Below, piece by piece: positions 35,094-43,661 of a DNA stretch of 64,000 nt. The notes under the pieces were generated by a model that was not told the DNA's origin, did not search any database, and saw only the letters and a list, made by a program, of their open reading frames with translations. The DNA is from Gammaproteobacteria bacterium (lineage in GTDB: Bacteria > Pseudomonadota > Gammaproteobacteria > Ga0077536). A program made the translations under genes and the position numbers. The stretch spans positions 233 through 64,232 of the forward strand of contig JBLFWX010000022.1 of assembly GCA_047611805.1 (NCBI GenBank), written 5' to 3'. Each line of letters starts with the position of its first letter. The stretch's first letter is position 1.

Positions 35094-35969
35094 TCATTTT
35101 TCGAACCGCTTGCGTATCGAGTGCAGCTCCGATCGGCGCTGCGCACTGGCTTCGGGATAGGCCATTTTCAGCCCGTTGAAGACATCCAGGATGATTTGGG
35201 AGATGAACAACCGCGCGTTCTTTTTGTCATCGGCGGGCACGACATACCAGGGTGAGATTCCCGTGCTCGTCTTGCCGAAACACGCCTCGTACGCTTGCAT
35301 GTAACGCTTCCACAGTTTCCGCTCTTCGACGTCGGCGACGCTAAGTTTCCAGTTCTTGTCCGGTTTATCGATGCGCTTGATGAAACGCTTTCGCTGCTCA
35401 TCCTTCGACTCGTGAAGGAAGATCTTGATGATCCGCGTGCCATTGCGGTGCAGATGGTTCTCGAGCTCCACGATCGACCGATAGCGCTCCATCCAAATGG
35501 TCTTCTCGTCGAGCAACTCGTTAGGAAGTTCTTGTCCAGCAAGAAGTTCGGGATGTACGCGCACGATGAGCACCTCCTCGTAGTAGGAGCGATTGAAAAT
35601 GCCGATTCGTCCGCGCTCCGGCAGGCGACAAGTGGTTCGCCACAGAAAGTCGTGCTGGAGCTCCTCGGCGCTCGGCTGCTGGAAGCTAAACACTTGGCAG
35701 CCCTGCGGATTGACGCCTGACATAACCTGCCGAATCGCGCCGTCTTTGCCGGCCGCGTCCATGCCCTGAAAAATGACCAGCATGGCATAGCCGTTCGATG
35801 CGTAGTGAAGCCGCTGCAGGGACGTCAGTTCGTCCACCTGTTGATCGAGAAGTTTGTGGTACTCCTTCTTCGACTTGTAAACGTGTTTCACGTGCGTCGG
35901 CCACTTCTTAAGGTCGACCCTCGTGCCCTCCGGAACACAGAAATCAGTGGGATCAATTGTCCGCGTCAT
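35094..35969 (-). CDS. ppk2: polyphosphate kinase 2 family protein (class III-like)
   Basis: [11 protein letters not shown]alker [32 protein letters not shown]. The ATG overlaps the atpG stop (ATGA). Confidence 0.93.
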
Positions 35970-36907
35970 GACGTGCTACTCCTGCGTGTGTTCGTGCTCT
36001 TGGGTGCGCTGCCTTTTGAGAGTGCCTCGACGCCTGAGATCACGTCGAACAACTCCTCGTCGATGCTGCTCTGTCGCAATCGGTGGAAACTGCCGTTGAG
36101 CTCTTCGAGCAAGTCGTCGATGTTCTTATCGGCGCGTTGCATCGCCGACAGGCGGCTTGCGTTCTCGCTGGCGAGTGATTCGGCGCACGCCCGGAAGAGC
36201 GAGATGAAGAGATATTCCCGGATGAGTGCGCGTAGCGTCGCGGTGTCGCCGCCGAGGACCTCAGGCAGTCTTGCCGTGGGCCAGGGAATCTCGACCAGCT
36301 GGCGATGCCAGCTTTCGTCGAGTGGCAAAATTCGCTGGGTGACGGGCGCGTAGATCGATCCCGACCCCTTCCTTGAGGTCGGGCGGTTGTAGAACAGGTG
36401 GAGCTCAGCGACTGCAATCGGGCTACGGCGCGTCTCGGTCTCAACGAGAATTTCCCCGACAAGGGGACCGATGGTCCTGACCGAATTAGGCACGGTGAAA
36501 ACCTTCGTCGGCGGCACGCCCGCGTCGACCAGGCGCGCATGAACGCGCTCACCAACGGCCCAGACTTGGCTTTTGCCCGGCAGAGCTGCGAGGGTCTCCA
36601 TCGCAAAATCGGCCACGACCTCATTAAACTGACCGGCGAGGCCCTGGTCTGAACCGAACACGACGGCACCGATCGTGTTGTGCGCAGGTCGTCCATTGTG
36701 CTCGCTCGATAAGAGCGCGGGCCCATCCGCCCGGAAGCATGCCCCCAGCCCCAATTCCACGGTCCGATAGTAGTCGGCAAGTGCGCGCACCGATTGTTCG
36801 TACTGCCCAATACTCGAGGCGGCCAAGGCCTTCATCGTGCGGACCACGGATTGTAGATCTCCGGCGCTGGCGAGCTTTCGGCGCAGACTCGCCGATGTGT
36901 CGCTCAC
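35966..36907 (-). CDS. atpG: N-type F1Fo ATPase gamma subunit
   Basis: [41 protein letters not shown]. Confidence 0.95.
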
Positions 36908-38553
36908 GACTTCACCTTCCGTGCCGCTTCGGGTTCGGCCTTCGTGTCGGCCTGTGGCCTGGATTTGGAATCAGGCTGGGATCTTTCCTTGGCTTCGGGC
37001 TCGACTTCGGACTGGGATTCGGATGTGGACTGGAAACGGGCCAGCGCGTGGCGGGCGAGGTCGATAATCATCTTGCGATCCTCTGCCTCTAGTTTCGCGG
37101 TGGTGTCGAACCGCGCACGCACTTCGTGCGCAATGGCCGCGACCGCCTCGCGCACGGCGTGCTCGGCTTCAGGCATCTGATCGAGCGGCACCGGATCGAA
37201 GAGCTCTGTAGTCAACGCCAGCAGTACAGCGATTTGTGCAGGCACAGCAACCGGGGCGAACTCAGGTTGCTTGAGGCAAGCACGGATTCGCTGTCCATGT
37301 TCGATGGTCTTGCGCGTGTCCTCATCCAGCCGGGCGCCGAACCGGGCAAAGGTCTCGAGCTCCTCGAACTGCGCGTAGGCGAGTTTGAGGTCGCCCGCCA
37401 CCGCACGGTAGGCCGCGCGCTGCGCCTTGCCGCCGACACGCGAGACGGATTTACCAACATCGACCGCCGGCAGCACCCCCAATTCGAATAACCTGGGCGA
37501 AAGATAGATTTGCCCATCGGTGATCGAAATAAGATTTGTCGGAATGTAGGCGGAGATATTCTGCGCTTCTGTCTCGATGATGGGCAACGCCGTGAGCGAC
37601 CCGCCGCCGAGCTCCGCGCGAAGATGCGTCGCCCGTTCGAGCAGGCGCGAATGGATGTAGAAGATGTCGCCCGGGAACGCTTCGCGTCCGGGTGGTCGCC
37701 TGAGCAGGAGGGAAAGCTCGCGATACGCGCGGGCGTGCTGCGTGAGATCGTCATAGACGATCAGCACATCGCGGCCCGCTTCCATGAAGTGCTCAGCGAT
37801 GCTAGTCGCCGCGTAAGGAGCGATGTAGGTGAGACCTGGCGGGTCGTTGCCCTCAGTGACAACCACGACGGTGTACTCCATGGCGGCCCTCTCCCGCAGG
37901 AGCGCCACAGTCTTCGCCACGGCGGAAGCTCGCTGGCCAATGGCGCAATAGACACACACAACGTCCTGCCCTCGCTGATTGAGGATGGTGTCGATCGCAA
38001 TGGCAGTCTTGCCGGTCTGCCGGTCACCCAGAATGAGCTCGCGCTGGCCGCGTCCGATTGGGATGAGCGCATCGATGACCTTGATGCCGGTCTGGAGTGG
38101 CACGGTAACCGGTGCGCGGTCCATGATGGGTGCAGCAGGGCGTTCAATGGGTAAGCGCTCGCGTGCTGAGAGCGGCCGGTTACCATCGAGAGGCCGACCG
38201 AGCGGATCGATCACGCGTCCCACCAATCCGTCGCCGACGGCGACATCCATCACCCGACCCGTACGCGCGACTTCATCGCCGACGTGCAGGTGCCAGTGCT
38301 CGCCGAGCAGAACGACACCGATTTCGTCCTCATCCACGTTGAACGCGACACCGAAGATTCCACCGGGAAGCTGGATCAACTCATCAAAGCCGACGTCGGG
38401 GAGGCCGGAGACGGTGGCGATGGCAGTAGAGATCGAGGTGATCGTTCCGAGCTCACGTGGCACGAACTGCGGGGTAAAGCTTTCGCGCGCCCGGCGCATG
38501 CCTTGAAAGGTCCGATCTAGGACGCTTTGCAGACTCTCATCCGCCGTATTCAT
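36904..38553 (-). CDS. atpA: N-type F1Fo ATPase alpha subunit
   Basis: [33 protein letters not shown]. Start is 38553 or 38559. Confidence 0.97.
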
Positions 38554-41738: not shown

Positions 41739-42133
41739 GTTGGTTCATTTATGTTGAAGGCCGTCAGGCGATGCAGAAATCCGGCTTCTAATTTCGCCAT
41801 GACGGAGCGCAACTCCCGCTCGCGCTCGTCCAGGGCCGTGAACTCCTGGTCGACGGAATCGCGCAATTGTTCGAGGTCCGTTCCCACCAGCGCGCGGCGC
41901 ACGGAAACGAGCACGTCTGGGCCAGTTTTGACGAGCACGCCGTCGTCCACGGCGATGTAGACCTCGCCCTGCGCCTCAGTTTCGTAGATCAGGATCCCCG
42001 GTGAGAGCGCTAGCACGCAGTCGAGTCGATGTGGCAGGAGTCCGAACGAGCCCGTATGCGTCTCCGCGACGATGCGCAACACGGCAGTCTTCTCGGCGAA
42101 AATCTGAAAGGGCAGCAGGATCTTAAGATTCAT
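41735..42133 (-). CDS. atpC: N-type ATPase epsilon subunit
   Basis: [31 protein letters not shown]. Confidence 0.93.
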
Positions 42134-43661
42134 GAGTAGCGGCGGTAGGTGCGCCCTCCGGTTGGGGTTTCGCCTCAGGCTGCAGATGCCGTTTGGTCGT
42201 CGCGCTAGCCGAGGGCTTTGCGTCGGCGTCGGCTTTCGCCTCAGGTTCGGCCGGTGACTCGGACTTCGCGTTCGCCTTGTCCTTTGCTTCGCCGATCGGG
42301 CCGATCATGTAGAGCGCGCTCTCCGGGTAGTCCTTGAATTCGTCAGCCAGGATCCGCGCACAGCCGTCCAGCGAATCTTCGAGACTGACGAGCTTTCCTT
42401 TGAGCCCAGTGAACTGCTCGGTCGTGAAAAAGGGTTGAGTCAGGAACCGCTCCAATCGGCGGGCACGGGCGACCACGTTGCGGTCCTCCGGCGAAAGCTG
42501 TTCGAGCCCGAGCATGGCAATGATGTCCTTGAGCTCGGCGTATTGCGCGAGCGTGCGCCGAATTTCCTGCGCCAAGGCGTAATGTCGCTCTCCAACGACA
42601 CCGGTAGTGGCCATCTTCGAGCTGGATTGAAGTGGGTCGATGGCCGGAAAAAGACCCTCGCTCGCCCGCTCCCGTGAGAGCACGATCGATGCGGAGAGAT
42701 GCGAGAAGGTGTGCACCGCTGCTGGGTCGGTGAAATCGTCCGCCGGCACATACACGGCTTGGATTGACGTGATGGCGCCGGTGTCAGTGTTGGCGATGCG
42801 CTCCTCCAAACCCGACAGCTCGGTACCCATCGTAGGCTGATAGCCTAACCGCGATGGCATCTGCCCCATTAGGCCGGAAACCTCCATGCCGGCCTGGATG
42901 AAGCGGAAAATGTTGTCGACAAGCAGCAGCACGTCGCGGTGCTCGTCGTCGCGGAAGTACTCAGCCATCGTCAGGGCCGCATGTCCCACCCGGAATCGGG
43001 CGCCCGGCGGCTCGTTCATCTGGCCGAAGACCATCACCATGTTGGGGAGCACGCCGGCTTCCTTCATCTCACGATAGAGTTCCTCGCCCTCGCGAGAGCG
43101 TTCACCGATCCCACAGAAAATGCTGACACCGTCGTGGTGGCCCAGCATGTTGTGGATCATCTCGGTGAGCAGCACGGTCTTGCCGACACCTGCCCCGCCG
43201 AACAGTCCCGCCTTGCCACCGCGCTCGAGCGGCACCAGCACATCGATGACCTTGATGCCGGTCTCGAAGATCTCTGACTTGGTCGAGCGTCGCGCAAGTG
43301 GTGGCGGAGCTCGATGAACAGAACGCCACTCGACGTCGGAGGGCACCGCTTCGCGGTCGATGACGTTGCCAAGCACGTCAAACATCCGCGAGCGAATCCC
43401 CTTGCCCACGGGCGCCTTAAGTGGCCCGCCAGTGTCCTCTACCGTCATGCCGCGAGCGAGACCTTGTGTGGGGGTCAATGCAATCCCGCGCACGTGGTGC
43501 GCATCGCGCTGCGCCAGAACCTCGATGACGATCTGCCGCTCTTCTCCTGTGCGCAACACGGAGTAAATTGACGGCAGACGCTTGTCGAACCGCACATCCA
43601 CGACGCTGCCGCGGACAGAGACGACGGCGCCAACATTGGCAGCGGAGGGATCGTCGATCAT
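42123..43661 (-). CDS. atpD: N-type F1Fo ATPase beta subunit
   Basis: [44 protein letters not shown]. The ATG at 43661 overlaps the stop of the xfp remnant. Confidence 0.97.

Follow-up and report, generated by a model that had tools for sequence, protein, structure and literature searches.

The window analysed here, a stretch of 64,000 nucleotides of contig JBLFWX010000022.1 from the gammaproteobacterial assembly GCA_047611805.1 (GTDB lineage Ga0077536), carries on its minus strand an operon for an N-type (alternate F1Fo) ATPase that includes a gene for a VIT1/CCC1-family metal transporter and ends with a gene for a polyphosphate kinase 2 (ppk2). The operon spans positions 35094-43661 and consists of 11 intact open reading frames (ORFs) in the order atpD-C-Q-R-B-VIT1-E-F-A-G-ppk2 (Table 1). 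The ORFs were identified by Pfam and NCBIfam profile searches with curated cut-offs. They were placed exactly as in the original prediction, which had been made from the nucleotide letters, and the profiles agree with the order and intactness it had described. Models of the "alternate F1F0" type (N-ATPase) are matched by eight of the atp genes; seven exceed the cut-offs of these models, and AtpR passes both TIGR03165 and PF12966. The start of atpD was taken at the ATG at 43661, which overlaps the stop codon of a phosphoketolase gene remnant. The coordinates of atpR are those of the longest ORF; its true start may be an internal ATG about 20 codons in, since the family match begins only at residue 26.

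The ATPase has the hallmarks of the N-type. An AtpR (urf2) gene, used as a criterion of this type (PMC2881411), is present, the canonical gene order is kept, and the block holds no delta subunit gene (atpH) but a long atpF of 276 aa. As in the canonical operon atpDCQRBEFAG, in so far as it is described in the available text of PMC2881411 and of the c17 ring study PMC5376962, there are nine atp genes in the same order with AtpR and AtpQ, a long b subunit and no delta subunit; also shared are the occurrence as a second copy beside an F-ATPase, signs of lateral transfer and a c subunit with two carboxylates. The operon differs from the canonical one in the transporter gene between the a and c subunits and in the ppk2 coupled to gamma. 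The second copy status follows from another a-subunit match on contig C35 of the same genome, at a locus that also encodes a beta subunit of 459 aa, which is nearest to F0F1 beta clusters of the Atlas. This beta subunit points, though weakly, to a host from the Pseudomonadota. The c subunit carries an extra Glu in helix 1 and the ligand set E-S-T...Y, for which Na+ binding is predicted; the EST ligand set is found in the c subunit of 24 of 36 relatives. This motif has been used as a predictor of Na+ specificity (PMC12342949, PMC2881411), and the two-carboxylate N-type c subunit of a Burkholderia enzyme is reported to bind H+ (PMC5376962). The pumped ion may be Na+ or H+.

The layout is not an assembly artefact, because both VIT1 junctions and the atpG/ppk2 junction are bridged without a single difference by contigs of two other sequencing runs (X3 at 34800-39977 and 40206-40917, X4 at 39447-40206); the four datasets that hold this DNA are ice metagenomes of one year, possibly of one campaign, and hence not fully independent.

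The last gene of the operon encodes a single-domain PPK2. It overlaps atpG by ATGA (35966-35969), and the sequence confirmed this predicted coupling as well as the 11-nt overlap of VIT1 with atpB and the 46-bp gap between VIT1 and atpE. The protein contains the motif ..GMDAAGKDG.., which we take to be the Walker A loop. Its best matches in the PDB are 6an9/6au0 (E 1e-75) and 5lc9, labelled as class III or as polyphosphate:AMP phosphotransferase. Class III enzymes form ADP and ATP from AMP or ADP and polyphosphate. Judged by its nearest solved relatives, the PPK2 of the window is class III-like and may belong to this class.

The nine atp genes and ppk2 form a conserved unit that is foreign to the host lineage. 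The nearest operon, on the metagenome contig L098, lacks VIT1 and is otherwise colinear, with 87.9-88.3% nucleotide identity in two blastn pieces (34940-39661 and 40443-43645) and protein identities of 83-92% for most genes (AtpR 81%, nucleotide level 88%). The next nearest operons were those of a Nitrospira genome (L068) and of a metagenome-assembled genome (MAG) of the Opitutales (L071). In all ten genes shared with L098 the ratio of non-synonymous to synonymous substitution rates is 0.10-0.40 (0.20 for ppk2), which points to purifying selection on the whole block. The G+C content of the operon genes is 0.56-0.65 vs 0.49-0.55 in the flanks. Among the 41 genomes of the host and its kin, an N-type a subunit scored above the cut-off in four, the host genome included; the operons of the three relatives share only 33-79% identity per subunit with that of the window and have neither ppk2 nor VIT1. 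The 40 relatives hold no ppk2 above 54% identity, whereas linked ppk2 genes of other phyla are 62-86% identical to the ppk2 of the window. Because of the shift in G+C, the divergent or absent copies in the kin and the closer linked ppk2 genes in other phyla, the N-ATPase and ppk2 unit is judged to be laterally acquired. Lateral transfer of N-ATPase operons as such has already been described (PMC2881411).

The pairing of ppk2 with N-type atpG recurs. Metagenomes were scanned with the gamma subunit and the best 80 loci, with 63-88% identity, were kept. In 72 loci the sequence continues for 300 bp or more beyond atpG, and in 17 of these ppk2 comes directly next; where at least 1 kb was available, the count is 9 of 50, with three more within 4 kb. 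In a sample of 115 Nitrospiraceae species genomes, close-type atpG (at least 61% identity) occurs at 28 places in 26 genomes, after three rows at 41-45% identity and one fragment of 101 residues had been dropped. At 16 of these 28 places ppk2 follows within 150 nt; at five it lies on the same strand at a distance of 0.5-10 kb, at five it is not near atpG and two could not be judged. The survey thus bore out the ppk2 linkage put forward by the original prediction. The Nitrospiraceae ppk2 genes fall into two groups, with 62-72% (26 places) and 50-57% identity (33 places), and only the former is ever found beside atpG (0 of 33 for the latter). Among the six Opitutales genomes with the pump, one has an adjacent, truncated ppk2 and another a ppk2 at 4.4 kb. 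By these counts, ppk2 is a frequent and dedicated, yet dispensable companion of the N-ATPases in this clade.

The transporter gene encodes a protein of 229 aa with a full-length match to the VIT1/CCC1 family. Members of this family from plants, yeast and Plasmodium transport Fe2+ and Mn2+ from the cytosol in an H+-coupled manner. The alignment with the solved Eucalyptus transporter VIT1 (6iu3) extends over residues 3-218 (E 1.2e-16). Two motif residues are matched in it, namely the Asp of ..DG.. and the Met of ..SM..G.Y, and the protein also has the acidic stretch on the cytoplasmic side. It represents the bacterial stand-alone form without a ferritin-like domain, and is predicted to export Fe2+ or Mn2+ from the cytosol. 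For PfVIT, Fe2+/H+ exchange has been reported (PMC5309874).

Comparison with L098 shows that VIT1 is a later, clean insertion of a single gene between atpB and atpE. In the insert, VIT1 is preceded by 54 nt and followed by 37 nt; L098 has 47 bp in its place. The ATG of VIT1 at 40388 overlaps the atpB stop codon (40378), and 46 nt separate the end of VIT1 (39699) from the ATG of atpE (39652). The last ~21 codons of atpB (after ...ATRARK) stem from the inserted DNA and differ from those of L098, and they fall outside the conserved part of the a subunit. Downstream of the insert, atpE retains its own AAGGAG ribosome-binding site. The G+C content at third codon positions of VIT1 is 0.64 vs 0.67-0.79 in the other operon genes. 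A named donor was sought; the best DNA match, an Isosphaeraceae MAG with 72.6% identity, covers the coding part only, and no donor could be assigned. A search of the own genome gave two VIT1 matches, of which that in the operon alone is intact. The other copy, also in the window, ends after the cytoplasmic domain, without the C-terminal transmembrane half, and is identical to the operon copy at 75 of 124 aligned residues.

Across three lineages, VIT1 is found with N-type operons at three sites that differ from one another: between atpB and atpE, after ppk2, and between atpA and atpG. Linkage as such, as opposed to the position seen in the window, therefore held up. Of 80 genome loci centred on VIT1, three carry N-ATPase genes. 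L068 has the order atpG-ppk2-VIT1, and so has L007, from a Nitrospiraceae MAG; in L071 from the Opitutales the order is atpA-VIT1-atpG. In L007 (positions 22-5845; genome G043, contig C7) atpG is broken by type I restriction-modification genes and RadC and ppk2 is in two pieces, while VIT1 and a CDF gene downstream are intact. VIT1 is also found in three of the 80 gamma-centred metagenome loci: L105 has the order of L071, with VIT1 running off the contig start, L122 that of L068 with a truncated VIT1, and L142 a truncated VIT1 copy upstream. A CDF-type (cation efflux) metal exporter follows VIT1 in L068, L007 and L122; the next genes in Nitrospira-type loci encode a PAS histidine kinase (divergent), a sigma-54 response regulator, Usp and Hsp20, in this order. 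In the Nitrospiraceae, the close-type ppk2 has a VIT1 downstream, no more than 600 nt away, at 19 of its 26 places; two of these VIT1 genes are broken. Of the remaining places, one has VIT1 across record ends and one at 4.4 kb, at three VIT1 was not found and two could not be judged. One further genome of this family has atpG-VIT1 without ppk2, and three ppk2-VIT1 pairs stand apart from, or without, atpG (G144, G110 and contig C14 of G043). The pairing of ppk2 and VIT1 is thus kept across many Nitrospiraceae species. The trio of N-ATPase, ppk2 and VIT1 hence recurs, by gene content and in other gene orders, in the Nitrospiraceae and in one Opitutales genome. No paper linking the N-ATPase with ppk2 or VIT1 was found in full-text searches, to which subscription journals and supplements may add; no mention of the ppk2-VIT1 pairing was found in the same searches. 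In the available text of PMC2881411, inserts in N-ATPase operons are described for cyanobacteria only, for example a single-gene insert in Acaryochloris, and neither VIT1 nor ppk2 is named there.

In a VIT1 tree of 81 rows, the window copy has as its sister an Isosphaeraceae copy that is not linked to the pump (support 96), the L071 copy is placed among copies of Verrucomicrobiota, and L007 and L068 pair together. The sister copy had raised the idea of a host from the Planctomycetota, which was dropped as no DUF1559 gene is found in the genome; this is a weak test, since the control genomes gave no match either. The linked copies thus occupy three places on the tree, and its starred branches force at least two changes. 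An approximately unbiased (AU) test did not reject a single clade for the four linked copies (p 0.076), and the tree was given up as proof of independent recruitment. It appears safe to speak of three separate insertion events, not of three proven gene sources.

Published proteomics of Nitrospira marina Nb-295 bear on the possible role of the trio. In Data Sets 1 and 3 of PMC8115632, alt_atpE, F, A and G, ppk2 and VIT1/CCC1 have consecutive gene numbers. The N-ATPase, ppk2 and VIT1 genes are linked as in the window and atpG and ppk2 are adjacent in both; VIT1 differs in following ppk2 instead of lying within the operon. At low O2 the counts for the PPK2 encoded next to atpG rose from 0,0,0 to 25,30,19, marked as significant, those for alt_atpF from 0 to 12-19 and those for alt_atpA from ~3 to 16-27, while PPK1 was flat between the oxygen conditions (PMC8115632). 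The main text of that study mentions several N-ATPase subunits as increased at low O2; in its available parts, N-ATPase, PPK2 and VIT1 are treated under separate headings, not as one unit. These data fit a respiration-independent route from polyphosphate to ATP to an ion gradient.

We propose that the laterally acquired operon serves to turn a reserve, polyphosphate, into ATP and the ATP into an ion gradient, with metal exporters attached, a reading to which we assign a probability of about 0.6. When respiration fails (anoxia, freezing, starvation), PPK2 would turn polyphosphate and AMP or ADP into ATP, which the N-ATPase would hydrolyse, expelling Na+ (or H+) and keeping the membrane energised. 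VIT1 would draw on the gradient maintained by the pump and remove Fe2+ and Mn2+ that build up under anoxia, that leave the consumed polyphosphate chelator, or both. Export of metals could be attached to the pump because ferrous metals rise without oxygen and because burning of polyphosphate frees chelated iron; polyphosphate acts as an iron chelator in vivo (PMC7387796). The link between pump, PPK2 and VIT1 would be co-regulation in one transcript. That VIT1 binds to the a, c or AtpR subunits in a physical complex has no support and is unlikely, because the position of VIT1 varies among operons. We infer these steps to physiology from gene content. Of the self-contained, respiration-independent circuit that had been predicted, the part concerning PPK2 and the pump gains from the recurrence of ppk2, the selection on the block and the rise at low O2 in N. 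marina; the placement of VIT1 between atpB and atpE does not recur, and the suggested tie to polyphosphate-metal granules gains no support.

Several observations weigh against this proposal. Among the 35 related metagenome loci with both genes, none has VIT1 between atpB and atpE, where the gap is at most 171 nt, and the junction is likewise free of a gene in L068 and L071; the nearest relative L098, as mentioned, has no VIT1 at all. The placement in the window is a one-off, which is what the original prediction had named as an outcome that would speak against it. Outside the Nitrospiraceae the linkage of VIT1 is sporadic and rare: of 201 Opitutales genomes sampled, six have the pump and six a close VIT1, both occurring together only in the genome of L071. 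VIT1 genes beside related operons are often broken (L122, L142, G142 and contig C14 of G043). Given that the host's own VIT1 is truncated, the insert may merely replace it. The c-subunit ligands are of the Na+ type, and if Na+ is pumped, an H+-coupled VIT1 would be energised only indirectly. The data sets available for N. marina record no VIT1, atpG or atpE product under either oxygen condition (PMC8115632). The companionship of ppk2 is loose as well: of the 17 metagenome copies next to atpG, four or more seem to be partial or broken (L100, L105, L147 and L163), and a tree of the gamma subunit with 85 rows requires 16 changes in adjacency, at least six of them forced by well-supported branches. 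Since it is scattered on the atpG tree and no more clustered than shuffled labels, ppk2 adjacency is gained or lost easily and often. Regulatory signals also give no support: an FNR/Anr box (TTGAT-N4-ATCAA, at most one mismatch) is present in 0 of 19 regions upstream of atpD, the only two matches to the sigma-54 consensus in the window lie well away from the operon and are no more than chance would give, and a promoter and terminator consensus scan of 34400-44600 returned no more sites than shuffled sequences.

How closely VIT1 belongs to the circuit can be read in two ways. PPK2 and VIT1, with CDF in Nitrospira, might be a functional pair on the N-ATPase: polyphosphate would be stored as an Fe/Mn salt, and once PPK2 burns it to ATP, the metals set free would have to leave the cell immediately, through exporters driven by the gradient that the pump builds with this ATP. 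We hold this stronger form to be rather unlikely; if true, the three parts would make up a closed circuit for survival that came together independently two times or more, perhaps three. Alternatively, VIT1 could be a replacement or hitch-hiker without mechanistic tie: the host copy would have broken, another copy would have been integrated by illegitimate recombination at an intergenic site that is permissive and well expressed, and the Nitrospiraceae trio would go back to one chance arrangement inherited vertically. The truncated second copy, which leaves the operon copy as the sole intact one in the genome, and the unique position (0 of 35) fit such a course, as do the unrelated inserts that operons of the clade tolerate (hibernation factor, baeRF, MacB-type ABC exporter, DUF6448). 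The AU test leaves room for a single origin of the linked copies, and the counts in Nitrospiraceae, being drawn from related genomes, lack independence. This explanation is burdened, however, by the three positions of VIT1 in three phylum-level lineages and by the three places of the linked copies on the VIT1 tree with their forced changes. It also leaves aside that ppk2 and VIT1 stay together even away from atpG and that a second metal exporter, CDF, follows in Nitrospira-type loci; we regard it as unlikely.

The direction of the circuit could also be the reverse of that proposed. The N-ATPase, if it has a large c-ring, would then use a small gradient of Na+ or H+ for ATP synthesis; PPK2 would bank the ATP as polyphosphate and VIT1 would handle the metal counter-ions of the growing polymer. 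PPK2 reactions are reversible, and a high ion-to-ATP ratio would thermodynamically favour synthesis at low gradients; the only solved N-type c-ring, with 17 subunits, has such a ratio (PMC5376962). The neighbours in the clade, however, are ATP producers (phosphoketolase, acetate kinase, pyruvate kinase) and fit an ATP-spending pump. PPK2 enzymes, moreover, favour the phosphorylation of nucleotides. N-ATPases always accompany a normal F-ATPase and have been argued to be pumps (PMC2881411, PMC5376962), and in N. marina PPK1, the usual polyphosphate synthase, is unchanged while PPK2 rises at low O2 (PMC8115632). Reversal is accordingly rated as very unlikely. Even less can be said for a store of polyphosphate and metals resembling an acidocalcisome, in which the pump would energise a membrane-bounded compartment and VIT1 load it with Fe or Mn against H+. 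The toolkit of eukaryotic acidocalcisomes includes a pump, a VIT1-type transporter and polyphosphate, and the topology of pump and VIT1 (cytosol to outside) would suit an internal vesicle too. But the block contains neither a gene for compartment formation nor a polyphosphate synthase, PPK2 is soluble and degradative by preference, and VIT1 is sporadic among the operons of the clade, so that we find this explanation hardly credible.

What N-type ATPases do for the cell has been an open question since 2010. With the proposed route from polyphosphate to ion gradient, the locus and its relatives would tie the pump to an ATP source (polyphosphate via PPK2), to oxygen limitation and to the problem of ferrous iron and manganese. 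The tie to oxygen limitation is backed by the published proteomics in a cultured Nitrospira, and the question is testable in culturable nitrifiers. Such a system would explain how strict aerobes of ice, peat and sediments hold a membrane potential and avoid iron damage when anoxic or frozen.

Table 1 Features of the operon, of its surroundings and of related loci. Positions refer to the window unless a locus is named.
Feature	Position	Strand	Basis or remark
atpD, N-ATPase beta subunit	42123..43661	-	TIGR03305, 881 bits (cut-off 752)
atpC, epsilon subunit	41735..42133	-	TIGR03166, 164 bits (cut-off 100)
atpQ, N-ATPase accessory membrane protein	41406..41738	-	PF09527; TIGR02230 (putative F0F1-ATPase subunit), 127 bits
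atpR, N-ATPase-specific membrane subunit	41099..41473	-	PF12966, 103 bits (cut-off 26); TIGR03165, 99 bits (cut-off 55.5)
atpB, a subunit, 243 residues	40378..41109	-	TIGR03306, 375 bits (cut-off 302); match residues 3-219
VIT1/CCC1-family Fe2+/Mn2+ transporter gene, 229 aa	39699..40388	-	PF01988 1-213 of 214, 213 bits, E 6.5e-63
atpE, c subunit	39371..39652	-	TIGR03322, 166 bits (cut-off 131); motifs ...PALAEGR..., ...AMIESTAIY...
atpF, long b subunit with delta-like C-terminal part	38537..39367	-	TIGR03321, 316 bits (cut-off 225); PF00430 and PF00213 (OSCP)
atpA, alpha subunit	36904..38559	-	TIGR03324, 921 bits (cut-off 750)
atpG, gamma subunit	35966..36907	-	TIGR03323, 411 bits (cut-off 282)
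ppk2, single-domain polyphosphate kinase 2	35094..35969	-	NF042973, 492 bits (cut-off 450); PF03976, 222 bits
N-ATPase and ppk2 unit, colinear with L098 save the VIT1 insert	34940..43645	-	blastn, G+C
781-bp insert with VIT1	39662..40442	-	blastn break points vs L098
Second VIT1 copy, truncated	51746..52165	+	PF01988 profile 1-123 of 214; G+C 0.545, host-like
Phosphoketolase gene remnant, abutting atpD upstream	43658..43969	-	XFP_C profile 154-202 of 202, E 1.4e-4; last ~49 residues
Short stretches matching the L098 DUF2254 gene	45082-45236		
Small Met/His-rich ORF	43970-44410	-	
Small Met/His-rich ORF	52904-53212	-	
MntP manganese exporter	30397-31017	+	
DUF411 gene	52169-52675	-	
Copper-type P1B ATPase with HMBD	54319-56502	-	
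Usp genes	29258-29728 and 57483-58352		
AckA (acetate kinase)	61860-63074		
PTA	63023-63973		
P-type ATPase	58970-61696		
SulP	12217-13944		
baeRF_family12 gene	18468-18947		
670-aa ORF	16459-18471	-	
CDF (cation efflux) gene after VIT1	L068:7594-8592		
CDF (cation efflux) gene after VIT1	L007:7866-8774		
CDF (cation efflux) gene after VIT1	L122:6576-7445		

The neighbours of the operon had been described as eroded, and this is correct in part. The remnant of the phosphoketolase gene, the short stretches of a DUF2254 gene and the truncated VIT1 agree with it, whereas an SBF transporter, an MscK-like channel, an ABC transporter and MntP have full-length Pfam matches. L098 still has the order XFP-DUF2254-atpD, and the gene pair upstream of its operon has decayed in the window. 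An ORF of 71 aa at 44702-44917 had no family match. Two small Met/His-rich ORFs with starts resembling signal peptides gave no Pfam match above the cut-off; one adjoins the operon and the other lies near DUF411 and the copper P-type ATPase, and both may encode periplasmic metal-binding proteins. Further metal genes of the window, MntP, DUF411 and the P1B ATPase, are listed in Table 1.

Neighbours of related operons were counted in two ways: ORFs that follow atpG or interrupt the operon were scanned with Pfam, and the 80 metagenome loci were searched by tblastn. DNA upstream of atpD was available at 18 loci, and 9 of them have a phosphoketolase gene no more than 3 kb before atpD. By tblastn, acetate kinase was found at 4 loci, class I aldolase at 5, glycogen phosphorylase at 4, P-type cation ATPases at 10, the DUF2254 membrane protein at 4 and CDF at 3. 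Pyruvate kinase and a pair of glucose-6-phosphate and 6-phosphogluconate dehydrogenases were each seen once near related operons in the Pfam scans. Judged by predicted function, the N-ATPases of this clade repeatedly adjoin genes for ATP supply without respiration.

A ribosome hibernation factor (Ribosomal_S30AE) was found at 5 of the 80 loci, in four of them between atpA and atpG (L108:9633-10004, L134:9636-10001, L107:9636-9953 and L133:3018-3206); L133 also has a baeRF-family gene at this place. The DUF2254 genes beside N-ATPase operons (L098:469-1824, L071:7925-9286, L107:10948-12312 and L111:2739-4082) vary in position and occur before atpD, after atpG or between atpG and ppk2. In L176 atpR and atpB are separated by a DUF6448 gene, and atpA and atpG by a MacB-type ABC exporter of three genes (2474-3121 and 6827-10004), an example which indicates that the operons of the clade tolerate inserts.

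In the kinds of genes alone, the window may be likened to the lxa locus of Burkholderia cenocepacia and to DosR-type dormancy sets (PMC3721108). Usp, AckA and PTA, a cation P-type ATPase and SulP are shared with the window and related loci, as is Hsp20 with L068; the lxa gene list in the available text includes no rotary ATPase, ppk2 or VIT1 (PMC3721108). The window further holds a glucokinase gene, the baeRF_family12 gene and the 670-aa ORF, in which a protein-isoaspartate methyltransferase domain is fused to a domain of the erythromycin-esterase family.

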